Below, in pieces: positions 1,630 to 64,000 of a stretch of DNA of 64,000 nt. The stretch is from a virus (Duplodnaviria > Caudoviricetes). Positions within the stretch are counted from its first letter, which is position 1. Each line of letters starts with the position of its first letter. The position numbers and the translations under genes were made by a program. A model generated the notes under the pieces. That model was given only the letters and a program-made list of their open reading frames with translations. It was not told where the DNA came from and ran no database searches. The stretch lies in IMG/VR virus record IMGVR_UViG_3300045015_000053; one strand, given 5' to 3'.

Positions 1630-2094
1630 ATGGGCAATCCGAAAAGGCACATCATGGGCAGTGACATTTTCATTGCCCGTCCGGTCATGGACACCGAACA
1701 CAATCGAGTCACTTTCACGGTTTGGCAGGGACACGGTTACAACCAACCGGCCGAGCATTACGACGAGATCCAAGTCAACTTCTATTCGGCCCCTGATGTC
1801 ATTTTGCAATACTCGAACGGCAACACCACAAAAGACGAGTGGCGTCGGTACTTCAGGTACAACTTCAAGGACTTGAATCTTGTTTCAAAAGAGCAGGATT
1901 TGCTCGCCGAGTATTTCGTCTACACCTACAGTTACGGCGAGTTCAAAGACGAGCATTTCGCTTACGACGACCCCGAACTCGAACGCGACATTCCGATGGG
2001 CAAGTTCGCCGGCAAGACTCTGGAAGAAGTAGCTGAGTACAAGCGGCTGAACAAGTACCAGTTCAAGTCGAACTTCAAACCCCGCGATTCTTGA
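1630..2094 (+). CDS. hypothetical protein
   Basis: 154-aa ORF with AGGAG RBS. Confidence 0.7.
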   Translation: MGNPKRHIMGSDIFIARPVMDTEHNRVTFTVWQGHGYNQPAEHYDEIQVNFYSAPDVILQYSNGNTTKDEWRRYFRYNFKDLNLVSKEQDLLAEYFVYTYSYGEFKDEHFAYDDPELERDIPMGKFAGKTLEEVAEYKRLNKYQFKSNFKPRDS

Positions 2095-2464
2095 ACGGGT
2101 CAACCAACACCCAACGTCGGCCGATTTTCTCGTAGCCGACTTTGGCACAGGCTTTCTTGTTTCTGGTTTTGCTGCAAAGTGTGTCGCAGGCCGAACGTTT
2201 TCTTTCGTTGAAGCATGCGTTTTTCAGAGCATCTATCTGCTCTTGGGTCAAAGGCTTGAAGTGATCGCCGTAGGCGTCCCAGGCCGCTTGTGCGGCCTGT
2301 GCGACCGGCTTGCTGTTCAGACCGAGTTCGTTGCCGGTTGGCAAGCCGGCCATCTGCGCGGCCACTTCCGCCCCGCTTTTGGCTAAGGCACCGAGCCAGC
2401 CCCACCCTTCGTCTTGTCGCTTTTCACGTTCGATCAGCCACTCTGAGAACTTCATGGTATTCAT
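2075..2464 (-). CDS. hypothetical protein with capsid-targeting-like N-terminus (MNTMKFSEWLIERE)
   Basis: ATG overlaps the TGA of the 2461..2898 gene; Cys-rich C-terminus. Confidence 0.65.
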   Translation of the reverse strand: MNTMKFSEWLIEREKRQDEGWGWLGALAKSGAEVAAQMAGLPTGNELGLNSKPVAQAAQAAWDAYGDHFKPLTQEQIDALKNACFNERKRSACDTLCSKTRNKKACAKVGYEKIGRRWVLVDPFKNRGV

Positions 2465-2898
2465 TTCGGCACCTTGTTTTTGATGAAATCGACCCACGCC
2501 TCGTGGTGGTGGGTCAGCGGCGGGTGTTTGGTGTAGCAGGCCGCGTAAGCCATGCAGAAGTTTTCTTCGTCGTTGTCTTGGTTCTGTTTCTTGTTCTTCT
2601 TGGCACAGGCCGTCCACGCCTTCTTCAGTTCCGGCGTCATCAACTTTTCCCACACCATGTGGCCGATCTCGTGTAGTGTGGTGAACTCGCGGCCGTAATT
2701 CCACGGGCCGGCGACCGTCACGGTCTTCCCTTTGATCAACCCGATGTGTTCGTCGTCGCCCTTCAGGGTGTTGCCTGGGACGTACTTGAACTTGAACCCT
2801 TTCATGAGGTCCGCGTGTTTCTTGGGAAGCTTCTTCAACATCGCCTTGATGTTGCGTTCTTCCTCTTCCGCTTCTAAAAGGAACTGACTGAAGTCCAT
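2461..2898 (-). CDS. putative Zn metallopeptidase (HExxH), capsid-targeting-like N-terminus
   Basis: TTLHEIGH and EENFCMAYA motifs; starts MDFSQFLLEAE. Confidence 0.75.
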   Translation of the reverse strand: MDFSQFLLEAEEEERNIKAMLKKLPKKHADLMKGFKFKYVPGNTLKGDDEHIGLIKGKTVTVAGPWNYGREFTTLHEIGHMVWEKLMTPELKKAWTACAKKNKKQNQDNDEENFCMAYAACYTKHPPLTHHHEAWVDFIKNKVPK

Positions 2899-2903
2899 GA
2901 TCG

Positions 2904-2909
2904 TATATA
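2904..2909. promoter_or_regulatory. palindromic TATATA, putative bidirectional late promoter
   Basis: Exactly 5 nt from the ATG of each divergent gene (2898 on minus, 2915 on plus). Confidence 0.6.
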
Positions 2910-2914
2910 GATTG

Positions 2915-3709
2915 ATGCTAAACTCGTTTTCAAACTGGTTCCGCGTAGATGAGGCCGCGAACGTGGAATATCAGGAAGGTCTTGTCGCTTCGTTCTTTTC
3001 CAAGCGGATCGCCGAAGCCGTCAAGAAGTTCTTCGAGGAGGACCGGCGGGAGTCTCTGCCGTACTACCTTTCTCAGATCGTCACTGGTGACGTGAAGGAC
3101 GATGTCGGCGTTTTCCCAATCCCTTCGCAGATCGGGCGTGTCAGTCTGACGCCCGATTTCAGCGGCTGGAAGGTCGAGTTGAAACCCGCCAACGAGCGAA
3201 CCTATGCGTTCGCCGGCGCGGGGAACATCGGCATCCCGTATGACAAGTCGGTTCTGAGAAACGCCCAGTCTTTTGAAGACCCGGCGGTTGACGGCATGTT
3301 GAGTCGCATGGACGACCAACTCGTTCACGAGTGCAGCCACATTTCCACCTCGAAGATCGGGGACGACGCAACGATTAAGGGCAAGCCCTACTGGGAGAGG
3401 TTTCAAAAGGGAAGCCCGGAATACGCAGAGGCTCAGATCAAGTATTACACCGATCCGGGCGAGGTTCGCGCTCACGCCCGTCAATACGCGAACATTTATC
3501 TGAAACGATACGGGAGCGACTTCGACCGTCGCAAGTTCGAGCAGATGGCGTGGAGCGACAACAAGTTGCACAGGTTCGTAAATCGGCTCAGGGATAAGGG
3601 TGTTCAGGGGCAGTTCCCGCAGTTGAGCGAGAGGATGTCTAAGGCGTATTCGGACTTCATGAGTTCGGTGGAATACTTTGTGGACCAGGGACGGATTATT
3701 TTCAGTTGA
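2915..3709 (+). CDS. putative Zn metallopeptidase-like protein (HExxH), capsid-targeting-like N-terminus
   Basis: LVHECSHI and DPGEVRAHA; starts MLNSFSNWFRVDE. Confidence 0.75.
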   Translation: MLNSFSNWFRVDEAANVEYQEGLVASFFSKRIAEAVKKFFEEDRRESLPYYLSQIVTGDVKDDVGVFPIPSQIGRVSLTPDFSGWKVELKPANERTYAFAGAGNIGIPYDKSVLRNAQSFEDPAVDGMLSRMDDQLVHECSHISTSKIGDDATIKGKPYWERFQKGSPEYAEAQIKYYTDPGEVRAHARQYANIYLKRYGSDFDRRKFEQMAWSDNKLHRFVNRLRDKGVQGQFPQLSERMSKAYSDFMSSVEYFVDQGRIIFS

Positions 3710-3728
3710 GCGACCCTACAATACAGGC

Positions 3729-4869: not shown

Positions 4870-6945
4870 ATGGCAGACATCGATCAAGTAGACGACACTG
4901 GTAGCGAAGAAGCGGTGGGAAGTCCGACTTTGGGCTTTCTTTACATCGGCGGCGGCACCATCTACGTCGGTAGCATTGGTAGTAACGTACCAAGCAACCG
5001 ACTGGATTTTCCGCTGGAGCTTTCTTGGTCCGTTAACAAGACGATCTCCTCCAAGCTCAGTTTCGAGTGGTCGGTAGGGGAACAGCCGAACTATTGGTTC
5101 CGTGTCGTCGGCGATTGCCAGCAGACCGACCAGTGCAGTTCTTCGATGCCGATCAGCACCCCTCAGCGTTGCATGCAGGGGTCTTACTTCATGACGATGG
5201 TGTTGGCGACATCCCCACAAGACGTGTGCCGTCAGCTTTCCAAGAGCAATTTCGTTTGGCGTATCACGGAGATGGGGCGGTTTTCCACCCCTGCGAACGC
5301 CGAAACAGCAAGGGCGATGGCAGACGCGGGGTTGATCGACCTCAACTGTAACACCCTGATTCCGGTTCCGTTCTCGCAGTTCGCCGACTGCTTGCAATTC
5401 AACTTGTCGGGCGACGAAGTCGTCGCTGTCGGCGGTTACATGAAGGTGTACGACACCTTCTTCAGCTACGAAGGCACGGGCGGTTTCGCGATCTCAGGAT
5501 CGGCCGAAAGCCCAGACCCGAACGAACTGGAAGGGAGCGGCGGGTTCCACCTCGGCGGCGGCGCGACCTACACGTCTACTCAGTTCAACTACGTTGGAAG
5601 TGGCGGATTCCACATCGGCGGCGGTGCGTCGAATACGAGCAGTCAGTTCAACGTTTCCGGCAGCGGCGGGATTCACGTCGGCGGCAGTGCGGACGTTACT
5701 TCTACGCAGTTCGATGCGGAAGGCGAAGGCGGATTCCATCTAGGCGGCAGTGCCGAATCCGTAGTCAGGTTGTCGTTCACTTCGAGCGGGTACGGAATTT
5801 TCGGCCCCACTTTTGCGGGCGTCCAGTTGAAGGGTTCTGCGGCCGTCGCCGCACAATACTACTTCAGCTACGAAGGGACGGGCGGGTTCCACATCGGCGG
5901 GTCCGGTGTCGGCGCGAGCAGTCAATTCAACGCAGAGGGCAGCGGCGGGTTCCACATCGGCGGTGAAGTTTTGACGACTTCCCCCGATTACAACCCCGAA
6001 GGTAGTGGCGGGTTTGAACTCGGCGGCGGTGCCGAGTCGTCTTTCAGTCTGGAGGCGTCCGGCAGCGGCGGCGCTCACCTGGGCGGCAGTGCGTTGACTT
6101 CTTTGAAGTTGCCGGCGGTTGGTAGTGGCGGGTTCCACATCGGCGGCGGCGGGTTGGGCAACAGGTTCTTCGGTAGCGGCGGCTTCCACTTGGGCGGCAG
6201 TGCCGTTGTCGATTCGACTTGGAAGGGCGAGTACATTGACGAGGCCGGTTGGGACGCCGTTTGTTTGGATCTTTCTCCGAACTTCGGTGCGGGGACGCCG
6301 ACCCTTTATGTTCCGACCGTATCGACCGTGAATGTTTGCGGTGCGAGGGGCATACCCACTAGCTTGCAAGTGGTTCAGAATTTCTCCGGGTCGAAGTTGC
6401 TGGACAACTTCCTGACCCGCAACGGACTGACCTTCCCGAACATTTTGAAGATCAGCTATCGCCGGTCCAGTGGGACTTGGCACGGCACATACCAGTACCG
6501 TGGTGCGGCCAACGACGTTTCGCGCGAGCGGTGGAACTTCTTCGTGGAGTTCGGTTGTGTGTCGGACGCCTACGGCCTTTCGGTTTCGCCGGTTTGGAAG
6601 TTCGACTTCAACGTGACGCGGGTCAACGAGCAGAGCGGACTCAGCTTCGACACGCGGATCTTGTCGTATTTCAATACCGAACCGCTGTCTGGCTACTTTA
6701 ACAAGAATGGCGTGGACCTGAACCTGGGATTGAATCCGAAGACGAAGGTCTTGAACATCATTTCCTCGAACGCGGTTCTCCAAGAGGTGACGCTGTTCGA
6801 CGGCATCGGACTTTTCTCGCCGGCCGCGTGGGGAACGAAGGACTTCCAGTACCGCGTACAACTGGTCGGCACCTTCAGTCAGTCGCCGAGCTACGACATC
6901 TTCCCGGTCTTCCCGAAACCGGAGGAGTACGCAGTAACAGTTTGA
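4870..6945 (+). CDS. large glycine-rich repeat protein, probable virion/tail component
   Basis: 691 aa with repeated GSGGFH(I/L)GG; TAAATA 5 nt upstream of ATG. Confidence 0.75.
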   Translation: MADIDQVDDTGSEEAVGSPTLGFLYIGGGTIYVGSIGSNVPSNRLDFPLELSWSVNKTISSKLSFEWSVGEQPNYWFRVVGDCQQTDQCSSSMPISTPQRCMQGSYFMTMVLATSPQDVCRQLSKSNFVWRITEMGRFSTPANAETARAMADAGLIDLNCNTLIPVPFSQFADCLQFNLSGDEVVAVGGYMKVYDTFFSYEGTGGFAISGSAESPDPNELEGSGGFHLGGGATYTSTQFNYVGSGGFHIGGGASNTSSQFNVSGSGGIHVGGSADVTSTQFDAEGEGGFHLGGSAESVVRLSFTSSGYGIFGPTFAGVQLKGSAAVAAQYYFSYEGTGGFHIGGSGVGASSQFNAEGSGGFHIGGEVLTTSPDYNPEGSGGFELGGGAESSFSLEASGSGGAHLGGSALTSLKLPAVGSGGFHIGGGGLGNRFFGSGGFHLGGSAVVDSTWKGEYIDEAGWDAVCLDLSPNFGAGTPTLYVPTVSTVNVCGARGIPTSLQVVQNFSGSKLLDNFLTRNGLTFPNILKISYRRSSGTWHGTYQYRGAANDVSRERWNFFVEFGCVSDAYGLSVSPVWKFDFNVTRVNEQSGLSFDTRILSYFNTEPLSGYFNKNGVDLNLGLNPKTKVLNIISSNAVLQEVTLFDGIGLFSPAAWGTKDFQYRVQLVGTFSQSPSYDIFPVFPKPEEYAVTV
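5470..6201 (+). repeat. intragenic ~19-20-aa GSGGFH(I/L)GG repeats
   Basis: More than ten degenerate copies in the translation. Confidence 0.85.
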
Positions 6946-6968
6946 AAACCATGAATTTGGAGGAATGA

Positions 6969-7565
6969 ATGATTGAAACGCTTGCAACCACACTGATCGT
7001 CATCTTCTGTGTGTTGATCTTCTTGGCCCAGTCAGCGGGCATAGCCAGTTTCTTTTTCTTGCTCTCGCAGAACCGCAAGTTGGCGGCTGCGAACGCCCAG
7101 TTGTTGGCCGACGCTGTACAACGCGATGCGAATCACAAAAAGGTCGAAGACTTGTTCAAGGAACTGGTCGAATTGACCTCGAAGGGGGTCAACGCTCACG
7201 CGGCAGTTACGGATCAACAGAAGAAGATCGAGGACTCGTTGAAAGAGGTGGTCAACGGTCAGTTCCAACTCGCGAACCTCACGACCGAGGGCATCAAGGC
7301 CACCACTGAGTACGTCGGCAAGACCTCGAAGGCGATGACGGACAGCGTCTTCGACTTGATCGAGAAGAACACCGACGACGTGTTGAAGCTGAACACCGAA
7401 AACGCCCAGAAGGTGTACGACTCGCTCTACGTCAACATCCAGATGATGAACTCTCTGATGAGTGCGATGGGTTACCGGCCGACCGGACCCGTCGAACCCG
7501 GCCTACAAGACCCGAAGCGGGGACAGAACTATTCCGCGCCACCGGCCCCATCCGAGGGCTTCTAA
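6969..7565 (+). CDS. membrane-anchored coiled-coil protein
   Basis: N-terminal hydrophobic helix followed by a heptad-like region; GGAGG RBS. Confidence 0.7.
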   Translation: MIETLATTLIVIFCVLIFLAQSAGIASFFFLLSQNRKLAAANAQLLADAVQRDANHKKVEDLFKELVELTSKGVNAHAAVTDQQKKIEDSLKEVVNGQFQLANLTTEGIKATTEYVGKTSKAMTDSVFDLIEKNTDDVLKLNTENAQKVYDSLYVNIQMMNSLMSAMGYRPTGPVEPGLQDPKRGQNYSAPPAPSEGF

Positions 7566-7598
7566 CTCCCTAAAATGAAGATATGGCGGGGGTTAACG

Positions 7599-8558
7599 AT
7601 GAACTACAAGAGCTTCACCAGCCGTAGGGCTTTCGGCATCGAGCTTGAGACATCTCAGACGTTGTCGCAGAGCAAGATCAAAAAACTGATTACCGAGAAG
7701 CACCACCGGCCGGTGACGGTCAAGGAGTTCATGCACTCCAAAAACAACCGCAACTGGCACGTTAAAACCGACGCCAGTTGCGGCGGTCCTGGGGAGAGCT
7801 ATGGCCTCGAAGTGGCGAGCTACAAGGGGTCGGGCGTCGAAGACATGATCTCGATTGCAGACACGGCCCAACACCTTCGAGACAACGGTCTAAAGGTGAA
7901 CCGGAACTGCGGCCTGCACGTCCACGCCGATGTCAGCGATTTCACAACTCAGCACGTCGGATTTTTGTTGGCGCGGTGGATCGCCATAGAGCCGTGGATC
8001 TTAAACGCGGTTCCGATCCGTCGCAGTTTCAGCGTTTACTGTCGCGGCCTGCGATACGTTCGGCCGCTCAAGGACAAGATCTACACCGCAAACGAGCTTT
8101 GGGAACACTTCAAACCCGACAACCCCGCCTACACCAACGGCTTGTTCGGGTTGGAACTTCAAATGCCGCAGGACTACCGCCGGGTCGCTTTGAACTTGGT
8201 CAACTTCAACGACGAACACCTGAAGGCGCGTAAAAAGCGGTGTACGGTCGAGCTTCGGTTGCCGGAAGGAACGCTGCGGCGGGTTGATGTGAAAAACTGG
8301 CCCCGGTTCTTCGTCAATTTGGTTGACGCCGCGTTCCGAGACAAGAAGACCGTTCCGTTGACCGCCGAAACACTTGACGAGTTTTTTGACGCCTGTGGGG
8401 TCGGTCACGAGGGCGATTTTTCCATCCTCAGTCCGGGCCTTCGGGAGACTAAACTCTGGCTCCTGCACCGTTTGCGAAAGTACCACTTCAAGCTCGATTC
8501 TAAGGCCATTGACGATTACATCCATCGGATGACTTGGCCCGAAAAACTGGCCTTCTGA
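7599..8558 (+). CDS. putative amidoligase (COOH-NH2 ligase type 2 family)
   Basis: FGIELE, WHVKTDASC, LEVAS, CGLHVH, TVELRL. Confidence 0.85.
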   Translation: MNYKSFTSRRAFGIELETSQTLSQSKIKKLITEKHHRPVTVKEFMHSKNNRNWHVKTDASCGGPGESYGLEVASYKGSGVEDMISIADTAQHLRDNGLKVNRNCGLHVHADVSDFTTQHVGFLLARWIAIEPWILNAVPIRRSFSVYCRGLRYVRPLKDKIYTANELWEHFKPDNPAYTNGLFGLELQMPQDYRRVALNLVNFNDEHLKARKKRCTVELRLPEGTLRRVDVKNWPRFFVNLVDAAFRDKKTVPLTAETLDEFFDACGVGHEGDFSILSPGLRETKLWLLHRLRKYHFKLDSKAIDDYIHRMTWPEKLAF

Positions 8559-8709
8559 ACTCGTATATAATTGACTTGACCGGGTTGACGAATTGTGTCA
8601 TCTTGGTCACCAGACGAGTTTCTGCAAGTTGATTTAGGTCAACCGCAGTTTCTCGGCCTTACTACCGACTACTACCGACAAGTACCGAACACTAACCCGA
8701 AGGACCACC

Positions 8710-9216
8710 GTGAATACTACCGTATCCACCAACGACCAACTTGTGACCGACCACATCCGTTTCGCCGATTCCATTGCGGCCCGGCGTAAGCGGAGAATCC
8801 CGCCCTGCGTCTCGCTCGAAGAACTCCAGTCTGCGGCCTACATGGGGCTGGTGGACGCATCGAAGCGGTACGACGGGCAGCAGGCGTTCAAGACGTTCGC
8901 CGGGCCGAGGATCGAGGGAGCGATCACCGATTACCTCCGCGAACTGCGTTGGGGCAGCCGCCGCTCGCCGGTGAAGACCCAAGCCGTTGGCGAAAGCGAC
9001 CGCAGCAACGAAACGGAAGTGAACGATCTGTTCGAGGTTGCCGGCCGTTTGGCAAACGACAACACCAGAGAGATTCTGAAGTGGCACTTTGTCGAGGGGC
9101 AGACGCAGAGCGAGATCGCGTCGAGGCTTGGGAAGACCCGTTCTTCCGTCAACCAGACGATTCAGAACTTTGCAAAAGAGGCGCGGTCGCGTTGGACGCA
9201 GGAACGCCTCTGTTGA
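8710..9216 (+). CDS. compact sigma-70 family factor (FliA/WhiG-like regions 2 and 4)
   Basis: ELQSAAYMGLVDASKRYD...FKTFAGPRIEGAITDYLRE; HTH TQSEIASRLGKTRSSV. Confidence 0.85.
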   Translation: MNTTVSTNDQLVTDHIRFADSIAARRKRRIPPCVSLEELQSAAYMGLVDASKRYDGQQAFKTFAGPRIEGAITDYLRELRWGSRRSPVKTQAVGESDRSNETEVNDLFEVAGRLANDNTREILKWHFVEGQTQSEIASRLGKTRSSVNQTIQNFAKEARSRWTQERLC

Positions 9217-9226
9217 GGGCCGAACA

Positions 9227-9460
9227 ATGACGGCGAAGGCGCGAGAAGATTGGCGTGCGAACGTCAAGACTATGGACGGCCTTCGCCGTCGTTATTCCCA
9301 CCTGCACCCGTTGATCCTTCAGCGGACCATCGAACGTGCGGAGTCGGCCGGCGAGGTGTTCGACATTCTCGAAGCCATGCCGCTGGCGTATCCCGTGGTG
9401 TGGGACTCAGAGACACGCAGGTGGGTCGAGCCGCCTGACATCTGGTTGGAAAACAAATGA
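9227..9460 (+). CDS. hypothetical protein
   Basis: ORF after sigma gene; overlaps the next start. Confidence 0.6.
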   Translation: MTAKAREDWRANVKTMDGLRRRYSHLHPLILQRTIERAESAGEVFDILEAMPLAYPVVWDSETRRWVEPPDIWLENK

Positions 9461-10074
9461 AGTTGTACGAAAAATTCCTCTCTCGATTGGGCCTCGATCT
9501 GCCCGTCATCGAACACTCTTCCAATTGGTCGTTCTTGTTTCGGACCTACGGTGACGGGTGGCTGACACCCTTCATCACCATGAAGGTCGATTGGGTCTGC
9601 CCCGAAAACCGCGTCGGCTACTACCAACTGCTTTTCCACCAGCCCATTCACGACGGCTACTCCATCCGCCGCTTCTTCGAGGAGTACAAGCAGCTTCGTT
9701 TGACTTGGGACGAGTACGACACCTTCTTCGAGAACTGGGAGGTTCGTCGCTACATCAAGCCGGGAATGCAAGAAAGTCTCGAACCCGTTTACGGCGACGA
9801 TCTCGTCCTCCGCGCCTGGGAGGTGTTCGTCTACACTCACGACAGTTGGATCGCGAAGCAGCCGTCCGAGTTTCGGATGTACGTCGAGAACGTCATTGAC
9901 GACACCAAGTCAAAAGACCAGCGACTGGCCGCGTACCAGAACGCTTTGATTTTCATGTCGAACTGCGAGCCGTCTGCTTTAAGGGTCTGGAAGAACGAAA
10001 TCTTTGAACGGTGGAATAATAACTACGCTCACTGGTTGGGTAAGTTCCTGACCCCCGAAGGAAAGAAAGCATGA
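9457..10074 (+). CDS. hypothetical protein
   Basis: 205-aa ORF, ATGA coupling. Confidence 0.75.
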   Translation: MKLYEKFLSRLGLDLPVIEHSSNWSFLFRTYGDGWLTPFITMKVDWVCPENRVGYYQLLFHQPIHDGYSIRRFFEEYKQLRLTWDEYDTFFENWEVRRYIKPGMQESLEPVYGDDLVLRAWEVFVYTHDSWIAKQPSEFRMYVENVIDDTKSKDQRLAAYQNALIFMSNCEPSALRVWKNEIFERWNNNYAHWLGKFLTPEGKKA

Positions 10075-10439
10075 AAAGAAAAATGTCAGTCTGCAAGATC
10101 TGGATGATCGGATCTCCCGCTTTGGTGTTGGGCATCGCCCACTACTCCGAAGACGACCCGAACGACGCATATTGGACGAAGTTCCAGTTGTTCACTGGGG
10201 AAGAGTATCTCGAATCCGCAGATCCCGGTTTGAAGAATTACGCCGCGAAGAACGTCAAGTACCACGGCGACACGATAATCCTTGTCGGCAAGCAACTTCA
10301 AGTTTTGAAGAAGGTCCACGACTTCGATCTGGGCGAGGCACCTTCCGTCGAAATCACCAAAGAGGAGGCCGACCTCTTGCACAAGGAACTGGCCGTAGAC
10401 GGCTGGCAGGATTTCGACTGGGAAACTTGGGGCAAATGA
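10071..10439 (+). CDS. hypothetical protein
   Basis: ATGA coupling, typical codon usage. Confidence 0.7.
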   Translation: MKRKMSVCKIWMIGSPALVLGIAHYSEDDPNDAYWTKFQLFTGEEYLESADPGLKNYAAKNVKYHGDTIILVGKQLQVLKKVHDFDLGEAPSVEITKEEADLLHKELAVDGWQDFDWETWGK

Positions 10440-10463
10440 CCTTCCGCCTTTAACTGGAGCAGT

Positions 10464-11114
10464 ATGGGTGCGACTTTTGGCGATCAAAAGTCCGTCCTGA
10501 TCGTTGACGAAAACCCCGAACCCGGTCGGTTCGCGTTGTACGCGGACCCGCCGAAGCAGCCCTCTTGGGAGAAGTGTCGGGAGAAGTTCGCGGCGATGAT
10601 CAAACCGGAGACGCCGGGTTTCTTGTTCAGTCACAGCCCGACTCAGGGGACGCATGTCGCGGGATTTCTTTCTAAGTCCGAAGACATACTTGATCTGAAT
10701 CTACGAAGTGTGTATTCTTTGACCGACCGGGAGAACGTCCTGTGGGTCGAGCCGGCACGTTTTTGGATGGACTGCTGGATTCGTCGCTCGCTGCTCACCA
10801 TCCTGCTGCGGTGCGGGATGTACTACGACTGCGGCAGCGACAACTACGAGGATGCGTTGTTTGGCAAGGGCGATGAAAAGGATCAAGCCCGTGAGTACAC
10901 TAACCGGACGAAACCGGCTGTGATGCGGTTCATGTTCGGGTTCACCAAGTTTGTGATGCCCGAAGGGATGTCCGAGCCGACCGGCGTAGTCCAGTCAAAA
11001 ATCTGGGTGGACGTTTTCAACAGCAAGACGACGCAGGAACTGAAATCGATTCTGGTGGCCGAAACACCCATGCCCTGTTTCGGCCGACTCGGAGCAGACG
11101 CAATCTGGGCATAG
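10464..11114 (+). CDS. hypothetical protein
   Basis: 216-aa ORF with GGAG RBS. Confidence 0.75.
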   Translation: MGATFGDQKSVLIVDENPEPGRFALYADPPKQPSWEKCREKFAAMIKPETPGFLFSHSPTQGTHVAGFLSKSEDILDLNLRSVYSLTDRENVLWVEPARFWMDCWIRRSLLTILLRCGMYYDCGSDNYEDALFGKGDEKDQAREYTNRTKPAVMRFMFGFTKFVMPEGMSEPTGVVQSKIWVDVFNSKTTQELKSILVAETPMPCFGRLGADAIWA

Positions 11115-15974: not shown

Positions 15975-16769
15975 ATGCACACCGTCTTCGCCGAGTGGCT
16001 GTTCGAGCGGACCACCGATCCCGAACGCCGCGCCAGAATCGACAAGGCTTTCAACACCCTGAAGGCGTTCATGGAAAAGGTCGTCAAAGAAGACACCTTC
16101 TCCGACTACTTCCAGACGGACGGCGACTTCTACTACTTCTTTCCCTGCGTCAAGCACCTGCCCGAAGTCTTCAAAGGGAACATGGAGTTCATCGCTCAGA
16201 AGTTCGACAAGGAAGCTCAACAAGACACGAACCCTCTGATGGGCCAGCAGATCGACTACAGCGGCGGGTTCAACTTCCTCGACCACGATCCGCCGCTGTT
16301 CACCTTCGTCTTCCAGACCGACCGCAAGACGTTCATCCAGAACTTTCCGAAGTATTGTGCCAACTGGTTGTCACAGGTTCGGCAGACCTTCAATCACGAG
16401 TACAACCACTACCTCGACTGGCTCGACTCGGACGGGAAGGCGATCCCCGCCAAGAACATCTGGAACGCCGGCGCGGGCGAGGCCCAACGGAAGAAATACT
16501 TCAACTCGACGCACGAGGTCAACTCGTTCTTCACCGACATGGTGATGGACGACTTCGAGTTCGTGCGGGGCGGGATGTTCTCGAAGATGCCGCCGGCCAA
16601 GAAACTCGCGGTGTTCGAGAAGATGTACGGCCGGGACGCTCGCGAGTACGTCGCCAAGTTCTGGACCCGCAAACAGGGCTTCTCCGAGTTCTCCACGGAA
16701 ACCCGCAAGCGGCTGTCGAAACGACTGTACGCCGCCTACCAGCAACTGAAGGCCGAAATCTCGGCTTGA
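15975..16769 (+). CDS. HExxH protein with capsid-targeting-like N-terminus
   Basis: FNHEYNHY and THEVNSF; MHTVFAEWLFE; TAGATA 4 nt upstream. Confidence 0.75.
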   Translation: MHTVFAEWLFERTTDPERRARIDKAFNTLKAFMEKVVKEDTFSDYFQTDGDFYYFFPCVKHLPEVFKGNMEFIAQKFDKEAQQDTNPLMGQQIDYSGGFNFLDHDPPLFTFVFQTDRKTFIQNFPKYCANWLSQVRQTFNHEYNHYLDWLDSDGKAIPAKNIWNAGAGEAQRKKYFNSTHEVNSFFTDMVMDDFEFVRGGMFSKMPPAKKLAVFEKMYGRDAREYVAKFWTRKQGFSEFSTETRKRLSKRLYAAYQQLKAEISA

Positions 16770-21842: not shown

Positions 21843-22724
21843 ATGCACGACCTCAAGTTCTCCGATTGGCTCAACGTCCAAGAAATGGCGCTCAGGAAAA
21901 TGGAACTGGTGCCGCCGCACAACCCGGACGATCCGAAATCCGCTTGGGGGCCAAAAGGCCGCAAGTACGGTTGGGACGACACCGACCGCAAGCTCGTCAC
22001 GTCCGAGGGCGGCGTGAAGAAATTCACGAAGCTGTTCGCGAACACCGAGTGGGACTTCGAGTTTTACCTCGTGCGGTCCAAAGAAGCCGCGAAGTGGGTC
22101 GAACACGGCGAAGTGACGACAGAGTGGGTTCACGATAACATCCCGCAGATGGCGACGTACCAACCGGCCGAAGACGCCATCAACGTGATCTTCACCAACA
22201 ACACCGGCGCGGAGAAGATGCACTTCTCGGCGTGGACCGCCGCTCACCGCTTGGGCCACGTCATCCAAAGGAGTCCGAACGTCGAGTATTGGAAGGAGTT
22301 CACGGCCGGTCTTCAAAGACAAATGGAAGGCATTCTGAGCCGCCACTACAACCACAAGGCCACCAGAGCTTTCTACGGCAGTAGTTTCCCAGACCAGAAG
22401 ACGGAGAAGTTGCTCGGCCGACTCGCGACGAACATGGGTACGATGCGGTCGGCTCGCCAAAACAACATCCGCAACTACTTCGAGTTCGCCTACGAACTCC
22501 TGGCCCAGTTCCTGACGACCAAGAACAAAGTTCAGTTCAACGGGCAGTTGGAGCGGATGCTCGCGACCAAGTTCGCGTGGGGCAAGCCGAGCGGCGGGGC
22601 GTACCAGAAGTACGACTCCGACAAAGAACAGATCGCGAGCGAGGTGGAGGACATCGCCGATTACTGTAACGAGTACCTCGAAGAAGTCATGCGAGAGTGC
22701 GTCGGCCGAACATTCGTGATGTAA
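21843..22724 (+). CDS. hypothetical protein with capsid-targeting-like N-terminus
   Basis: MHDLKFSDWLNVQE; TAGATA 5 nt upstream; AAHRLGH motif. Confidence 0.8.
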   Translation: MHDLKFSDWLNVQEMALRKMELVPPHNPDDPKSAWGPKGRKYGWDDTDRKLVTSEGGVKKFTKLFANTEWDFEFYLVRSKEAAKWVEHGEVTTEWVHDNIPQMATYQPAEDAINVIFTNNTGAEKMHFSAWTAAHRLGHVIQRSPNVEYWKEFTAGLQRQMEGILSRHYNHKATRAFYGSSFPDQKTEKLLGRLATNMGTMRSARQNNIRNYFEFAYELLAQFLTTKNKVQFNGQLERMLATKFAWGKPSGGAYQKYDSDKEQIASEVEDIADYCNEYLEEVMRECVGRTFVM

Positions 22725-29417: not shown

Positions 29418-29544
29418 CTCCGATTTTGAAGGCTCTGGTTCCCCTTGTGGGTGGTAAAAAGATCGCGCATAATCATCACGTTGCTGCGATTGGGCTGTAG
29501 AAATCGAAACCCCCAATGTCTGCGTAGCAGACAGGGAGTAAGTG

Positions 29545-30720
<1,176 letters not shown>

Positions 30721-31441: not shown

Positions 31442-32113
31442 ATGTTTAGTTTCAAAGAATGGTTTGACGAGTCTCTAAAGTGGGATTACCTCGCGAGCGA
31501 AGCCGAGTTGTATCCCGAAGGGTTCCGTGATTTTGCGAACCGGATGCTCGGCCGCAAAAAGAAGCCGATGGATTTGCCAGACGACGGCACGTTGCCGATG
31601 GCTGCGTCCGAAAAGAATCCGGCCGTCTATCCGGGGATGAACAATCCCAGAGACGCAATCGCAGCCACCAAAGACAAACCGGCGGTTTACCCAGGCGTGA
31701 ACAACCGAAGGGACGCGATTGCGGCGACCAAAGACAAGCCGGCCGTGTATCCGGGTGTGAACAACCCAAGAGATCCGATTGCGGCTACGAAGAACAAGCC
31801 GGCCGTGTACCCAGGCGAGAACGACGAAAAGCTCCCGATGGGACACGAGTTGAATAGCGTTATGCACGTTTACAAGCAGGTGCAGGACGGTATCACACGG
31901 ATCTGGAAGGATGACGCTGTGAGGGCGTTGTTCAAAAACGATCCGAGCGGAACGAATCAAAAGAAGGCCGACGACTTGGTGAAGTCTTGGAACGCCTTCA
32001 AAGATGTCATCAACCAACAGTCCAAGTTCCAACAAGGCAGAGGCAAACCACCAGAATTGCCGATGCCGGCTCGTCAACGGGCGGCTAACCGCGACGATCA
32101 CTGGAGGGGTTGA
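31442..32113 (+). CDS. repeat protein with capsid-targeting-like N-terminus
   Basis: MFSFKEWFDES; 20-aa repeats. Confidence 0.75.
   Translation: MFSFKEWFDESLKWDYLASEAELYPEGFRDFANRMLGRKKKPMDLPDDGTLPMAASEKNPAVYPGMNNPRDAIAATKDKPAVYPGVNNRRDAIAATKDKPAVYPGVNNPRDPIAATKNKPAVYPGENDEKLPMGHELNSVMHVYKQVQDGITRIWKDDAVRALFKNDPSGTNQKKADDLVKSWNAFKDVINQQSKFQQGRGKPPELPMPARQRAANRDDHWRG
31610..31822 (+). repeat. intragenic 60-bp (20-aa) tandem repeat, ~3.5 copies
   Basis: K(D/N)(K/N)PAVYPG(V/M)NN(P/R)RD(A/P)IAAT. Confidence 0.85.
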
Positions 32114-34315: not shown

Positions 34316-34906
34316 ATGATGAATTTCATGCTGTGGATCGAAGGTGTAGAAAATCGCGGGCCTCAAGGCACACCCAAAAGGGGTCGCGGGCCGCGAGAAG
34401 ACATTTACGAAGTGATGGAAGCCGGGATGCACCACGGCGTCATCGTCGGTCCCATGTGGGAATATGTCGCGAGACTCCACGGCGGCGCGGCGATGAACCA
34501 ACCGTCCGAAGCCGAGCGGGTGAAAAAACTCGCCGGCCAGATTTCCGGTTTCGGCGGATACTGGGAGCGGCCGATTGTTGACGAAGAAAACGTCGTCATG
34601 GAAGGCCAGCACCGGCTCGAAGCCGCAAGGCACTTGGGATACAAGAAGATCCCGATCATGCGAGTCATGGACCTCGGCCGCGTCTTCGGTTACGAACAAA
34701 TGGCTGCGGCGGCAAAAGCCGTGAAGCCGATGGGTGGCGATGCCCTTCAGCAGATTGTCGGTCGCGCCCTCGACACCTTGTACGAAGAGAAGGGCAACGT
34801 CGAAGAGGCTTTGCAGTACACTGTCGGTCGCGGGTACGATGACGCCTTCCACGCCGCGATCAATGCGGCGAAAAGGGCAAAGCTGCCGAACTACATAAAA
34901 GCATGA
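34316..34906 (+). CDS. ParB/Srx-like domain protein with capsid-targeting-like N-terminus
   Basis: RPIVDEENVVMEGQHRLEAARHLGYKKIPI; TAAATA 5 nt upstream. Confidence 0.75.
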   Translation: MMNFMLWIEGVENRGPQGTPKRGRGPREDIYEVMEAGMHHGVIVGPMWEYVARLHGGAAMNQPSEAERVKKLAGQISGFGGYWERPIVDEENVVMEGQHRLEAARHLGYKKIPIMRVMDLGRVFGYEQMAAAAKAVKPMGGDALQQIVGRALDTLYEEKGNVEEALQYTVGRGYDDAFHAAINAAKRAKLPNYIKA

Positions 34907-36255
34907 ACGGCTTTCAAAACTGGTTCGAGTCACAAACGGCAGACCTCGAAGACAAGATCTTCGCGGCCATCAGCGACGACAAAGCTTCCGACTTTGACGC
35001 GATGCTCAAGGAATGGGTCAAAAGCACCAACCCGTCGATGTCCGGCGTGGTCCTGAAACGGGACCACTACGGCAAGAATCGCGGCGAGGGCGTGACCTAC
35101 TTCAGCGGCCAACTGACGCCCTCTTACCGAGAGGTGTCGGCTCACCGCAAGAGCGAGAGCGGGTTTTCTGGGATGGGCCTGATCGTCACGCCCCTGACCT
35201 ACCGCTACCTCCGCTCGCACACGTTGGAGCATTTCGACGGCATCGGGATCGACAACGGGATGTTCACGGAAGCCGGACAGAAGAATTTTTCGTGGACCAA
35301 GTACGAGAAGATGATCAAGGTGGCCCTCGCCCAAGAGAAGCGAGAGGTACTCGGCCAACTGCACTTCTTCACGGTGCCGGATCAGCCGTTCGACTGGGCG
35401 GCGACGATGAAGAAGTTCAAGGAACACGCTTCCGACGTGAAGCGACTTCGGAGTTGGGGAGCGCCGGTTGCCATCTGTATTCAGAACGGGGCGGTCGTCG
35501 CCAACGTGCCGTGGGGCGAGATCGACGTGATCTTCATCGGCGGCAACGACGAGTACAAGACCGGGCCGGACGCACAGGCGATCACGGCCGAGGCCAAGAA
35601 GCTCGGCAAGGGCGTTCACATGGGACGTGTGAACAACCTGAAAAGAATGAACAAAGGGTCGGAATGGGGCGTGGATACCGCTGACGGGACATACGTCATG
35701 CACGAGCTTGCGAAGGCTCTCCACGAGATTGAGACAAAGAACCCGATCCGGCCGCGAGAGGGGATCGTCCAGTACCACGAAAGACTGAGGCGGTTGCTGC
35801 ACGGTACGCACGCGGAAAAAGACTTGCACGTTCCGGGCAGCAAACACCTGACGGAGCCAGAGATCATCGACAATCTTGTTTCGCACATTCTGGACATCCA
35901 GACTAAGAACAACATGGGTGCGAGGTACAACGCGATTGCCGACATGGTCGCCCACATGAAGGGCAAGCCGTTGAGCCGGGACGCGGTTCGAGAGTCGGAC
36001 AGATTCTTGCCGCAGGTTCCACACATCTCGCCCGACGACGATGTGGTACAATATGACGACGCGGGGAACGTGAAGCTCGGACGCGACGGCCGACCACTCA
36101 AGAACTACAAAGTCTTCAGTCAGTTGGCGGATCGCCCGGAGTACCGACCGATGCCGAAGGGCATCCCGTTCGACCCGAAAGACATGAGCGTGTACAACAA
36201 GTACATCAACAAATACATCATGAGGATGCGAGACGCGGGCGTACTGCCCCACTGA
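34903..36255 (+). CDS. TGT/DpdA-like TIM-barrel protein (putative) with capsid-targeting-like N-terminus
   Basis: IDNGMF, VPD, QNG, IFIGG, VHMGRVN, DTADGT; family assignment from recall only. Confidence 0.55.
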   Translation: MNGFQNWFESQTADLEDKIFAAISDDKASDFDAMLKEWVKSTNPSMSGVVLKRDHYGKNRGEGVTYFSGQLTPSYREVSAHRKSESGFSGMGLIVTPLTYRYLRSHTLEHFDGIGIDNGMFTEAGQKNFSWTKYEKMIKVALAQEKREVLGQLHFFTVPDQPFDWAATMKKFKEHASDVKRLRSWGAPVAICIQNGAVVANVPWGEIDVIFIGGNDEYKTGPDAQAITAEAKKLGKGVHMGRVNNLKRMNKGSEWGVDTADGTYVMHELAKALHEIETKNPIRPREGIVQYHERLRRLLHGTHAEKDLHVPGSKHLTEPEIIDNLVSHILDIQTKNNMGARYNAIADMVAHMKGKPLSRDAVRESDRFLPQVPHISPDDDVVQYDDAGNVKLGRDGRPLKNYKVFSQLADRPEYRPMPKGIPFDPKDMSVYNKYINKYIMRMRDAGVLPH

Positions 36256-37657: not shown

Positions 37658-38058
37658 TTACAACTCGAATCCGTCATCAGGGTTGGTGGTCCGCAGAGGC
37701 GAAGATTCGCCGGTCGGTTGGGCCGGTTTCGGAGCGGTCGGTTCGACGTACTTCTTCTTGCGGTAGTATTCGTCGGCCTGGGCGATGACCTTCATCTGGG
37801 CGAGGATTTTGTTCGCGAGCTTTCTCGATGCGGTCTTGATGCCTTTGGACAGATCGCGAACGCTGTTCGCAACGTCGTGGTATGCTTTGAAAACCGGGTC
37901 GTGCGGGTCCAGGCTCATACCCCGCTCACGAATGAGGGAGTTATAATTGTTGTCGAGGCCGGTGGTCATGCCGTCGAGCGCTTGACGATTTGCCTGAGAA
38001 CGTCGTGGTTCTCTGTGTAAGGTGTGTTGGTTTCGAGCCAGTTTTTGAATGAACGCAT
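37658..38058 (-). pseudogene. frameshifted gene with capsid-targeting-like N-terminus
   Basis: MRSFKNWLETN frame stops at 37966; coding-like sequence continues in another frame from ~37982. Confidence 0.5.
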
Positions 38059-42360: not shown

Positions 42361-42717
42361 TTGAGGACGTTTAACGAGTGGGTTCTGCTGCAAGAAGATA
42401 CGATCTGGGAGAAGCACGGTCGCGATCTCCCGTCCATCTTTAAGTCAACCCATTATGCTCTGCCGACCTATCAACAACTGGAAGAGTTCAGCGACTATCC
42501 CGAACTGACGGCAGAAGAGATCGTTCAAGGTTTCGGGTATACGATTGTGGGTCGTGGCGTGAGCAGTCCCGACAACTGCAAGAAGATCGTTGAGTCGATT
42601 CGGTTGTTGGTGGAGCGATACCCCGACCGGCTGGAATACAAAGAGGCGTTGACTAAGGCCGAAGAAGAGGCCAAGATCAAACTCGAAAAGTGGCGCAGGG
42701 GGGTACGTTTCCCGTAA
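42361..42717 (+). CDS. hypothetical protein with capsid-targeting-like N-terminus
   Basis: TTG start; MRTFNEWVLLQE. Confidence 0.7.
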   Translation: MRTFNEWVLLQEDTIWEKHGRDLPSIFKSTHYALPTYQQLEEFSDYPELTAEEIVQGFGYTIVGRGVSSPDNCKKIVESIRLLVERYPDRLEYKEALTKAEEEAKIKLEKWRRGVRFP

Positions 42718-46418: not shown

Positions 46419-46616
46419 ATGAAGAAGACCTTGTTTTCAAAGTGGTTGAAGGTTCGCGAGGCGGTGGGCGGCGCGGTCGGCCCTTACATCGCGGGCAAAA
46501 AGGACAAGACTGGTTCCGGGTGCGGCAAGCACACCGACTTCCAAGTCAGCGGCGCGTGCAGCGACCTGAACACTGAGAAGGGGAACAAGAAGATCCGCGA
46601 CGGCAACATCAAGTAA
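46419..46616 (+). CDS. small protein with capsid-targeting-like N-terminus
   Basis: MKKTLFSKWLKVREA; TAAATA 5 nt upstream. Confidence 0.7.
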   Translation: MKKTLFSKWLKVREAVGGAVGPYIAGKKDKTGSGCGKHTDFQVSGACSDLNTEKGNKKIRDGNIK

Positions 46617-57860: not shown

Positions 57861-58292
57861 ATGAAATCATTTAGAGAATGGGTTAAGAAAAATAAGAATG
57901 TAAATTTAAATGAAAATAGTAATGAAGCTGAAATCCAACAATTGGTAGGATTAATTGATGAACCGATGAAACAAATCTTGTCCATTCAAAAACAGTTTAC
58001 TTTCAATCCACATGTTGCAAACACACCAGAGCAAAATAGCCAAATTCACCAAATTGCGAATCAAATTTCTCCCACCATTAAGAAACTGGGAAGTTCGGTG
58101 CTATCAGTCCATGAAAAAACAGGCTATGAGATGATGAAATTGGGAGATTCGTTGTTCAAAAGCGACTCAAATACAACACGAGCTATTTTGGAGTTTGCTC
58201 AAAAATGGGAACAGATAAAACAATTGGCATTATCTGCATCATCATCTGCAAAAAAATTGTTTAAAAGTAAATTCGGCAAATTCGGCGGATGA
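57861..58292 (+). CDS. AT-rich protein with capsid-targeting-like N-terminus, inside the split tRNA
   Basis: MKSFREWVKK; A/T-ending codons unlike the flanking genes. Confidence 0.75.
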   Translation: MKSFREWVKKNKNVNLNENSNEAEIQQLVGLIDEPMKQILSIQKQFTFNPHVANTPEQNSQIHQIANQISPTIKKLGSSVLSVHEKTGYEMMKLGDSLFKSDSNTTRAILEFAQKWEQIKQLALSASSSAKKLFKSKFGKFGG

Positions 58293-59688: not shown

Positions 59689-59991
59689 ATGCCTCACACA
59701 TTCCTCGAATACGTCGGCCAGCGAACCGAGAGCTACTTGATTCACACGGCCCAGAAGATCAAGCACGGTCCCGATTACGGGTACTTGTACTGGAACGAAG
59801 AGAAGAAAAAGGTTCACTGGACTGCGGCAGACGGCGACGGGTTCGATCCGAGGGACGAACACCCGTTGACATCGCTGAAGGAAATCAAGAAGATGTTCGC
59901 CAGCATCCCCGGCGTCAAGGACGTGGAGATCGGCGACGAGTGGTCGCCGAAGGGCGACGGGTGGCAACGGATTGACTACAAGAGGAAGTGA
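59689..59991 (+). CDS. hypothetical protein with capsid-targeting-like N-terminus
   Basis: MPHTFLEYVG; TAAATA 5 nt upstream. Confidence 0.7.
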   Translation: MPHTFLEYVGQRTESYLIHTAQKIKHGPDYGYLYWNEEKKKVHWTAADGDGFDPRDEHPLTSLKEIKKMFASIPGVKDVEIGDEWSPKGDGWQRIDYKRK

Positions 59992-60613: not shown

Positions 60614-60628
60614 ACGCAAAGGGGCAAA

Positions 60629-61090: not shown

Positions 61091-61326
61091 ACACGAACTT
61101 GAACGACGTAGTTCCCAGGCAGTTGTTCGTAAAGGGCGACTTCAAATCAGCGGCCGGCTTGACCTTACCCTGGAAGGTCGAGTGCGACTCCCTGAACGAA
61201 TGGGACTGGGACACTCTGGCGTTGATGGCTCTGCCGTTGCTGCCGCCCTTCGGCCGTGTCGAGGCGGTGATGAACGGGGGTTTGAATTTCGGCTCTTGTT
61301 TGATGCGGCACCGGACGCCCTCGTAA
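61087..61326 (+). pseudogene. truncated phosphoribosyltransferase-like gene
   Basis: FKSAAGLTLPWKVECDSL...GG resembles the phage OPRT-like N-terminus; PRPP-binding VDDV loop absent. Confidence 0.55.
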
Positions 61327-61715: not shown

Positions 61716-61764
61716 TCGAGATCAAGGGGTTCAACAAGTTCAGCTTCCGCAAGGACAAGTCCAC

Positions 61765-62594: not shown

Positions 62595-62601
62595 ATAAGG
62601 C

Positions 62602-63093
62602 ATGCGATTCAAAGAGTGGCTTCTTGCCGAAGACATCCAGATTTACGGCGGCGACGACGACAGCGAAGCCGCGAGCGGTGCCGCTTACGTTATGGACGAC
62701 GCCGGTCTGCGATGGACCCGTGACAAGAGTTTGTTGTTGGTTGCGGTGGACGGCAAGCGTGGGGAGGACTTCGACGGGAGCGACGTGGTCGGATGCGTCG
62801 TCTACAGTTGGGGTCCAGACCATGAGTCCGAGGACCGCGATCACTACGTTTTCGATTTCGACACAGCCGTAAGACGCGACTATCAGGCGAAACCCATGTT
62901 GCGTGTCGGCCCGCGATTGATTGACGCCGCAATTGCGTACTACCGCAGCTTGGCCTCCGAAGTTGACAGTTCCGAGATCAGAGTGTACGCCGTGAACCCG
63001 AACATCGTCAAGTTCTTGACCGGCCCGCGTTACGGGTTCAGGGTGGAAGAGGAACTTCAGGGAGGGAAGGCGATTTTGTCTTGGCGCAGATAG
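62602..63093 (+). CDS. GNAT-like protein with capsid-targeting-like N-terminus
   Basis: MRFKEWLLAE; VVGCV, AVRRDYQ...VGPRLI, N...F...YGF; TAGATA 4 nt upstream. Confidence 0.55.
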   Translation: MRFKEWLLAEDIQIYGGDDDSEAASGAAYVMDDAGLRWTRDKSLLLVAVDGKRGEDFDGSDVVGCVVYSWGPDHESEDRDHYVFDFDTAVRRDYQAKPMLRVGPRLIDAAIAYYRSLASEVDSSEIRVYAVNPNIVKFLTGPRYGFRVEEELQGGKAILSWRR

Positions 63094-63101
63094 ATAATGT
63101 C

Positions 63102-63482
63102 ATGCGTGTCTTGCGAATTCTCTTCTTGGTTTTGATCCCCGCATGTTGCCTGACGCTGCCGATCCAGCGTCCAGTCCCGCCTAGTTCGACCACAGTAAAA
63201 CGATCTGCTCAGACCCCGTTCAAAGAGGTGACACGCCGGTGTGTCGTTTCCGGTCGGTTCGTGGGTTTCCACGACAGCTTCATCTACGTTGAAAGTCCCA
63301 AAGAGGGGCTGGTGCGGGTGAAGGTTTCGCCTAAGACGCGGATCTTGTTTCACAACTACACGACGCACGAGCGGCTGGAAGCGACCAGCGTCAAAGAGGT
63401 GATTTTGAAGTTGCCAGACGCGGTGACGATTGGCGTTAACGGGATGGCGGAAGACGTGATCTTTGCGGTTACTGAAGACTGA
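63102..63482 (+). CDS. secreted/lipoprotein-like hypothetical protein
   Basis: Hydrophobic N-terminus with Cys; TAGATA 5 nt upstream. Confidence 0.6.
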   Translation: MRVLRILFLVLIPACCLTLPIQRPVPPSSTTVKRSAQTPFKEVTRRCVVSGRFVGFHDSFIYVESPKEGLVRVKVSPKTRILFHNYTTHERLEATSVKEVILKLPDAVTIGVNGMAEDVIFAVTED

Positions 63483-63506
63483 GGGGGCGTCAATTTGACG
63501 CCCCCC
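63483..63506. terminator. hairpin between convergent genes
   Basis: GGGGCGTCAA-T-TTGACGCCCC. Confidence 0.65.
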
Positions 63507-63513
63507 TTGTCGT

Positions 63514-63807
63514 TTACCATCCGAACCGCCCGAACTGGTACTGATACTGGAATCCGAACTGGTTGTATCGGAACCGGAACGTTTCGGAGAAACCGAACGC
63601 CACTGGCGGGTAGGGATACAGGAACGGCTGGACGTAGGGACGCGGCAGCACGACCGGCGGCGCGACGAACGGACGCCCGAACGGGTAGGCCGGGCCGGGG
63701 ACCAGAACGGGTTGTACAACGACCACCGGCGGGCGACGATTGGGTTGTGCCTGTGCGGTCGATGCGAACAGGCAGAGGGCGGCGGCGATAGCTAATAGTG
63801 TCTTCAT
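63514..63807 (-). CDS. secreted proline-rich protein
   Basis: Signal peptide MKTLLAIAAALCLFASTAQA; AAGGA RBS. Confidence 0.7.
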   Translation of the reverse strand: MKTLLAIAAALCLFASTAQAQPNRRPPVVVVQPVLVPGPAYPFGRPFVAPPVVLPRPYVQPFLYPYPPVAFGFSETFRFRYNQFGFQYQYQFGRFGW

Positions 63808-63885
63808 TTCTTTTCCTTTGTTTGGGTCTTACAGGGCTAATGAAGTTTAGTGTGCAATTTGCGCGGAGTTGGCCTAAATAACCGC

Positions 63886-64000
63886 ATGAAGACTTTCTTG
63901 CAACTTCACGAAAACGCTCTCCGCTTCAACGAGTCGGTGATCGATGACGCTTGTGTCAAAAGCTTCAAGAAGAAGCTGGACGAGATCAAGAAGATGATCG
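63886..64000 (+). CDS. partial ORF with capsid-targeting-like N-terminus
   Basis: TAAATA 5 nt upstream; MKTFLQLHENALRFNES runs off the window. Confidence 0.65.
   Translation, partial: MKTFLQLHENALRFNESVIDDACVKSFKKKLDEIKKMI

Follow-up and report, generated by a model that had tools for sequence, protein, structure and literature searches.

A short N-terminal peptide shared by unrelated proteins

The stretch of DNA analysed here (the window; 64,000 nucleotides, nt) spans bases 41,123-105,122 of a 188,369-bp IMG/VR virus record, with a G+C content of 55% and a CheckV completeness of 37%, whose source is an uncultured huge phage from lake water. The window is 100% identical to two assemblies, and public contigs that encode its own proteins reach 475,914 bp, so the phage genome is at least 476 kb in length. 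An initial annotation had listed 15 N-termini in the window that share a short motif, and all 15 were found in place and translate as reported. This peptide, termed the tag below, has a phenylalanine at residue 3-6 (mostly 4), an aromatic residue at 7, a hydrophobic residue at 8 and a glutamate at about 9-12. The tags consist of three hydrophobic residues with polar spacers, followed by acidic residues; by inspection they lack the basic n-region and uninterrupted hydrophobic core of ~7-15 residues that make up the Sec/Tat signal peptide pattern.

Two tagged genes on the minus strand open the series. The first (2075..2464) is led by a Shine-Dalgarno sequence and encodes a protein of 129 amino acids (aa), MNTMKFSEWLIERE, with no Pfam family; its start reads MNTMKFSEWL, the tag coming after the second Met. 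The second (2461..2898; 145 aa, MDFSQFLLEAE) encodes an HExxH motif at residue 76 and has a CTATATA box 5 nt before the ATG. A 16-nt intergenic stretch (2899..2914), in which a palindromic TATATA box faces the divergent tagged genes starting at 2898(-) and 2915(+), separates it from a plus-strand gene (2915..3709; 264 aa, MLNSFSNWFRVDE) with HExxH at residue 138. All but one of the remaining tagged genes also lie on the plus strand, which holds nearly all genes of the 188-kb record. A TAGATA box stands 4 nt before the ATG at 15975..16769 (264 aa, MHTVFAEWLFE, HExxH at residue 141) and 62602..63093 (163 aa, MRFKEWLLAE), and 5 nt before it at 21843..22724 (293 aa, MHDLKFSDWLNVQE, a body with no family). 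A CTAAATA box ends 5 nt before the ATG at 34316..34906 (196 aa, MMNFMLWIEGVE, with a ParB-like N-terminal domain), 46419..46616 (65 aa, MKKTLFSKWLKVRE) and in two genes with weaker tags, 59689..59991 (100 aa, MPHTFLEYVGQRTE) and 63886..64000 (81 aa, MKTFLQLHEN, running past the window end). At the Trp position, the tags starting at 34316, 59689 and 63886 depart from the pattern, yet their promoter box is the same. Shine-Dalgarno sequences lead the genes at 42361..42717 (118 aa, TTG start, (M)RTFNEWVLLQE) and 57861..58292 (143 aa, MKSFREWVKK), while that at 31442..32113 (223 aa, MFSFKEWFDES) has both a Shine-Dalgarno sequence and a TATATAC box ~30 nt upstream. The longest tagged protein in the window (34903..36255; 450 aa, MNGFQNWFES) is a DpdA/TGT-like TIM barrel. 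Finally, the minus strand holds a tag-only open reading frame (ORF) of 30 codons (37966..38058, MRSFKNWLET) comprising the tag and 20 further residues, present with the same sequence in two independent assemblies. Its stop codon and the ATG of a 103-codon ORF (37658-37969) overlap as ATGA, and the region 37658-38058 (-) could represent a split tagged gene, a case of translational coupling or a frameshift.

A motif scan of the whole record, suggested in the initial annotation as a check, added 12 tagged genes outside the window. This gives a total of ~27 of ~260 genes, or ~8-10% of the genes in the phage; gene counts are approximate, as the calls used for statistics were made with a simple codon-usage caller. 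The tags outside the window include MFSFKNWLE (393 aa), MKNFRSWFE (334 aa), MNFRVWLES (241 aa), MKMNFRDFF (788 aa) and MISFREYLE. The initial annotation covered the 15 cases of the window; these 12 and the promoter box fused to the start codon (see below) were absent from it. Across its six frames the record has 40 matches to the core F-x-[polar]-W-[LVIFM], 15 of which sit 2-8 codons after a start codon heading an ORF of at least 60 codons. By our own estimate (six-frame frequency × ~260 genes × 6 positions) about 0.1-0.2 such matches would be expected by chance.

The tag copies differ in their codons (TTT/TTC, GAA/GAG/GAC/AAC, CTG/CTC/TTG/GTT) and the 27 tagged proteins display no pairwise similarity (BLASTP, E 1e-3). 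The shared element is therefore a peptide on unrelated bodies, not a DNA repeat, and its conservation acts at the amino-acid level.

Peptides resembling the tag were also seen in other settings. MSFGEYLEMV in a PrkA kinase outside the window was rejected, because the PrkA domain natively begins with it. Within a 319-aa ORF at 52430-53389, MKDFLQWMMGD stands 49 codons from the end (window 53240-53389, +), and a 52-codon minus-strand ORF has KKSFAEWVKQRE close to its end (window 60240, -); such peptides away from an N-terminus could be internal starts, remnants or chance matches.

A promoter-like box is closely associated with the tag. A box reading CTAAATA, TAGATA or [CG]TATATA ends 4-6 nt before the ATG in 12/20 tagged genes, compared with 7/222 untagged genes (p 8e-11). 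The nearest public relative, the uncultured huge phage LR756511.1 (595,163 bp, 42% G+C), has a DnaE that is 41% identical; in this phage the box directly precedes the ATG in 35/58 tagged and 49/826 untagged genes (p 2e-24). Other tagged genes have the box ~30 nt upstream together with a Shine-Dalgarno sequence. The record contains 49 boxes in all, about half the number expected from composition, and 25 of them stand directly before an ORF start. The late promoter of T4 is TATAAATA, which the box resembles. Because the box mostly ends only 4-6 nt before the ATG, the mRNAs of most tagged genes look leaderless. In addition, the minority strand is enriched in tagged genes (p 0.03 here and 3e-7 in LR756511), as would be expected if they are independent transcription units.

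Divergent gene pairs whose ATGs lie 16-30 nt apart around one palindromic TATATA box occur in the window (2899-2914), where the box is 5 nt from both start codons, and at G000 29679-29686; LR756511 has pairs of the same layout at 398764/398794 and 473532/473554. This arrangement looks like a bidirectional promoter of two leaderless mRNAs.

Likeness to T4 leaders and a T4-type head module

The tag extends to related phages. When LR756511 was scored with a matrix built from the other genome (the 188-kb record), 58/946 genes scored at least 7 at their N-terminus, as against 0.36% of internal start-like codons, and two tagged genes lie directly downstream of the LR756511 capsid gene. Three tagged proteins have a homologue in LR756511, and all three homologues are tagged too. 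The tag of the 450-aa protein is kept in 15/17 orthologues that are 42-85% identical, its letters drifting (MNGFQNWFE, MRTFSKMLSE, MKTFRRLLRE, MKNFFDWIK). Moreover, in a relative of 30% G+C, 12/27 genes within one 21-kb stretch are tagged. Genome-specific tag dialects, which would be a sign of receptor co-evolution, were looked for and rejected: the mixed consensus is the same in three further relatives (30%, 46% and 58% G+C). The idea that tagged genes turn over faster was likewise not supported, as homologues in LR756511 exist for 20% of them and for 30% of untagged genes (p 0.45).

The initial annotation had likened the N-terminus to the T4 capsid-targeting sequence (CTS), and this likeness was borne out from the T4 side. 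A position matrix made from the 27 tags alone was used to score every ATG-initiated ORF of 50 codons or more across 100 kb of T4 (799 candidates). It retrieved the internal protein genes ipII, ipI and ipIII at ranks 2, 4 and 5; ranks 1 and 3 were internal Met residues of gp18 and uvsW, and Alt took rank 25. The chance of finding three named genes within the top five of 799 is ~1e-7. The T4 leaders (NC_000866), namely MKTYQEFIAE (ipII, ipIII), MKTFKEFTST (ipI), MAKINELLRE (gp24) and MELITELFDE (Alt), and the tags have a common 4/7/8/Glu-10 register; in LR756511, as in the phage of the window, Phe is most frequent at position 4. In T4, diverse internal proteins have only the CTS in common, and it brings them into the scaffolding core (PMC3012670). 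The CTS is then removed in a single cut by gp21, and foreign CTS fusions are packaged (10.1101/2021.01.19.427310; PMC5694885).

A candidate cleavage site can be seen in most tags. The first Glu lies 2-6 residues past the aromatic residue in 19/20 tags here and 40/58 in LR756511, most often at an offset of two, with three or five the next commonest. The P3 residue around this Glu is hydrophobic at 17/19 sites here and 35/40 in LR756511, although this statistic is in part circular, given that hydrophobic residues near the Glu are what the matrix selects. A small residue (Ala, Ser, Gly or Thr) occupies P1' at 10/19 and 15/40 sites, respectively, a weak enrichment (p ~0.01-0.02). The site rule of the T4 prohead protease is (L/I)-x-Glu, and the P3/P1' pattern of the tags fits this rule.

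The S77 protease and gp23 were looked for in the 188-kb record and neither is there. Other contigs, very probably of the same phage, do encode a T4-type head module. The longest contig is 475,914 bp both for the capsid protein P0131 and for the window protein P0001, and the P0131 locus (L049) has a G+C content of 55.2% and stems from the same sample series as the window. L049 encodes a gp20-type portal with an intein (PF07230 and PF14890; L049:549-3107), a gp21-type S77 protease (PF03420; L049:8373-9050; 33% identical to gp21, E 1e-24), a 305-aa coiled-coil scaffold-like protein and a gp23-type capsid protein (PF07068; L049:10001-11473; 29% identical to gp23, E 3e-37), as well as a 616-aa protein. 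The gp21-type protease, scaffold-like protein, gp23-type capsid and gp20-type portal that a T4-type tag calls for are thus all encoded at this locus, and the same module is present in LR756511, with an S77 protease, a gp23-type capsid protein (78% identical) and the T4 order protease-scaffold-capsid. The capsid protein itself begins MNANAKFLNE-A, with F7, L8, E10 and A11 invariant in 21 relatives, and this N-terminus resembles a CTS-type decapeptide with a cleavage site behind it.

A search with the LR756511 capsid protein gave more than 7,600 protein matches, on contigs of up to 673 kb; the 120 matches listed, P0131 among them, are 78-93% identical, which makes this an extremely conserved family. 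One member of this capsid family is filed at NCBI under a Thorarchaeota metagenome-assembled genome, which is probably mis-binned phage DNA. LR756511.1 also encodes, at 242621-242989 (-) and distant from the head module, a second, diverged S77 protease paralogue (E 3.5e-9).

Among cultured phages, XacN1, a T4-superfamily jumbo phage that encodes an S77 protease, carries the tag on ~4/592 genes. Its chitinase ORF272 has been reported to be packed in virions (PMC5852040). The annotated start of this gene (AP018399.1 162627-163334, -) is preceded, 24 codons upstream, by an in-frame ATG that gives MKNNPFIKWFE directly after a AATAAATA box, and it is possible that this upstream ATG is the tagged, true start.

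Candidate cargo, proposed mechanism and competing explanations

The bodies behind the tags are diverse, as had been claimed, though not every assignment held. The ParB-like (34316-34906), TGT/DpdA-like (34903-36255) and HExxH types were upheld, the first by a PHROG match. HExxH was found in four tagged proteins, including those at 2461-2898(-), 2915-3709 and 15975-16769. The bodies in the window described as GNAT-like and repeat proteins gave no family match. LPD1 and LPD23, both polyvalent-associated, were considered for two orphan bodies and set aside as weak atlas leads that Pfam did not confirm. Outside the window, Pfam identified a tagged SprT-like metalloprotease (E 1e-9) and a tagged ART-PolyVal ADP-ribosyltransferase (E 4e-7), and a GYF-repeat protein and a GP88-domain protein are tagged as well. 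Tagged domains in LR756511 include poly(A)-polymerase-like, NADAR, 2H, HAD, phosphoribosyltransferase and papain-like.

The AlphaFold 2 model of the 450-aa protein (pLDDT 86) has its best PDB matches in TGT. In this model the tag heads a helix spanning residues 2-23, residues 1-8 having pLDDT values below 50. The protein matches actinophage DpdA-like genes over residues 117-293 only, and the DpdA-like body therefore exists elsewhere without the tag. A related-loci search with this protein gave zero matches.

Several tagged bodies fall in families that are predicted, and in some cases shown, to be virion-packaged and injected. Among the polyvalent proteins, for which packaging and injection have been predicted, ADP-ribosyltransferase, metallopeptidase and ParB domains act as hubs, and T4 Alt is a CTS-tagged, packaged ADP-ribosyltransferase (PMC5512222). 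The cargo set fits an injected toolkit without proving one.

Taken together, these data make it probable, in our assessment with moderate confidence, that the shared N-terminus is a T4-type CTS, greatly expanded, in a huge phage of the T4 superfamily. The portable head-loading tag proposed in the initial annotation is partly supported, by its likeness to T4, by the presence of head machinery and by its retention in orthologues and in LR756511; its GNAT-like and repeat cargo was not confirmed. By analogy with T4, the mechanism would run as follows. Each tagged gene would form its own small transcription unit, with an mRNA that, judging from the box, mostly starts at or next to the start codon. 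An amphipathic peptide of 9-14 residues (Phe at ~4, Trp/Phe/Tyr at ~7, a hydrophobic residue at ~8) would dock the new protein onto the prohead scaffolding core. The gp21-type S77 protease would then cut after the Glu behind the hydrophobic pair, so that the peptide leaves and the cargo stays with the DNA. Dozens of unrelated enzymes are probably packed into the capsid in this way, and at least part of the cargo may enter the host with the DNA; candidates for injection are the ADP-ribosyltransferase, the SprT-like and other HExxH proteins, the ParB-like protein and the DpdA-like transglycosylase.

Several observations weigh against this interpretation. The tagged proteins reach 788 aa here and 1076 aa in LR756511, and 60 or more cargo species are without precedent in T4. 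A DpdA-like DNA-modifying enzyme is expected to work in the cell rather than in the head, and the tagged protein MNAFLDWVLPMNCNWF, which runs on into a hydrophobic stretch, may be a membrane protein. No Glu is found within 8 residues in 1/20 tags here and 9-13/58 in LR756511, and the partial circularity of the P3 statistic counts on the same side. The basis for calling the box 'late' is solely its likeness to TATAAATA; T4 gp55, used as a single-sequence query against the 188-kb record and LR756511, gave no match, which is uninformative for so divergent a protein. The head module is tied to the phage of the window only by the 475,914-bp match, G+C content and sample series, not by continuous sequence. 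Lastly, a close relative in culture was looked for and not found; a DNA-level comparison with cultured phages gave zero matches.

The foremost alternative is that the peptide docks to some other common partner (a chaperone, a membrane site or a replication or assembly compartment) and not to the capsid, the likeness to T4 being that of a generic amphipathic helix; a variant would make the tag a substrate signal for regulated proteolysis by the second S77 paralogue. The predicted short amphipathic helix start of the 450-aa protein would suit such docking, a DnaJ-domain gene adjoins the capsid gene, the second S77 paralogue of LR756511 lies apart from the head module, and many cargo types are ordinary cytoplasmic enzymes. 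A complex predicted from residues 1-60 of the 450-aa protein together with the scaffold-like and capsid proteins scored 0.00, which counts neither for nor against targeting to the head. Against the alternative, the tag matrix singles out the three T4 internal proteins and not amphipathic N-termini generally, the register and trailing Glu match the T4 leaders, the capsid protein has a CTS-like decapeptide of its own and no such partner has been identified. We consider this alternative, with its variant, unlikely.

Codons 2-10 might instead serve the translation or stability of leaderless late mRNAs, the constraint falling on the RNA 5' end or on the nascent peptide and not on the destination of the mature protein. 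This reading draws on the ~60% of tagged genes that lack a Shine-Dalgarno sequence and have the box 4-6 nt before the ATG, and on the ~17 of ~25 leaderless-looking genes that are tagged. Nevertheless, a translation signal would hardly be conserved at the amino-acid level with free synonymous variation, or persist from 30% to 58% G+C; ordinary Shine-Dalgarno leaders precede at least eight tagged genes, the tag is missing from several leaderless-looking genes and the CTS genes of T4 are not known to be leaderless. The amino-acid conservation, the tagged Shine-Dalgarno-led genes and the untagged leaderless-looking genes together make this explanation quite improbable. Least credible is a functionless tag that merely forms the 5' end of a mobile promoter-plus-start cassette placed before new genes by recombination: tagged genes do have their own promoters, are in excess on the minority strand and include a tag-only 30-codon ORF, but there is no nucleotide-level repeat (codons and flanks vary), tagged genes turn over no faster than untagged ones (p 0.45) and orthologues that are 42-85% identical retain the peptide pattern despite sequence drift and without nucleotide identity, which leaves this explanation very little probability.

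Several further genes are notable. An EF-Tu gene lies in the window at 29542-30720 (+), with GTP_EFTU domains D1-D3 in public gene calls, and in a relative (L055) the EF-Tu gene adjoins the DpdA-like gene copy. A complete PrkA/DUF444/SpoVR gene trio, normally a bacterial operon tied to starvation or sporulation, is present at L001:5316-10890 (G000 5316-10890). A DnaE-type DNA polymerase III alpha is encoded in two pieces ~5 kb apart, PHP-plus-start and finger/HhH (L001:12318-13832 and L002:1258-4113), and L007:6135-7715 encodes a 526-aa protein with WGR and PARP catalytic domains.

Relation to known systems and implications

The closest known system is the T4 CTS. Both are N-terminal peptides of ~10 residues on otherwise unrelated proteins, with the register 4/7/8 and a Glu near position 10, and a matrix from one retrieves the other. 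Both come with an S77 protease, a gp23-type capsid, a gp20-type portal and a coiled-coil scaffold-like protein, with a TATAAATA-like promoter box and with an ADP-ribosyltransferase, like Alt, among the cargo. The differences lie first in scale, which is about twenty-fold larger here: ~27 of ~260 genes in the record and ~58 of 946 in LR756511, compared with three internal proteins (plus Alt and head proteins) in T4. In addition, Trp is favoured at position 7 here, the distance to the Glu is variable and the box is mostly fused to the ATG. The cargo predicted here reaches 788-1076 aa and, in place of small basic proteins, is made up mostly of enzymes.

The tagged set also overlaps with the polyvalent proteins (PMC5512222), which share with it ART-PolyVal, zincin/SprT-like metallopeptidase, ParB-like, 2H and phosphoribosyltransferase domains and the predicted role of delivery with the invading DNA. 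Polyvalent proteins, however, combine 2-15 domains per polypeptide, whereas each tagged protein has at most one recognisable domain and is a small protein in its own right, individually tagged and behind its own promoter. In the phiKZ-like giants (SPN3US, phiKZ and 201phi2-1), many internal head and ejection proteins are similarly targeted and trimmed after Glu by a homologous prohead protease (PMC5694885). Their propeptides are mostly at least 100 residues long and have no shared short motif, and these phages belong to a different lineage and are without this tag.

The tag and its machinery are as in T4; what differs is the scale, the promoter fused to the start codon and the dominance of enzymes among the cargo. 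A literature search found no paper linking capsid targeting to huge phages. We propose, tentatively, that an uncultured and abundant clade may have made the T4 CTS into a plug-and-play cassette, a fused box and 10-residue tag, that loads and delivers 50 or more enzymes. If so, the tagged genes would amount to an unbundled polyvalent arsenal, and each capsid would carry a pre-made enzyme toolkit of ADP-ribosyltransferase, metalloproteases, ParB-like nuclease and enzymes that modify or repair DNA and RNA. With its dozens of enzymes, the predicted cargo would then be far above the known set of T4. The box fused to the ATG further predicts a whole class of leaderless late mRNAs. For the tag itself T4 offers a direct testbed, as CTS fusions are an established tool there. 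Should the tags work as they do in T4, a simple sequence rule would read the packaged, and perhaps injected, proteome from the genomes of unculturable huge phages, and would give a partial account of their many orphan genes.

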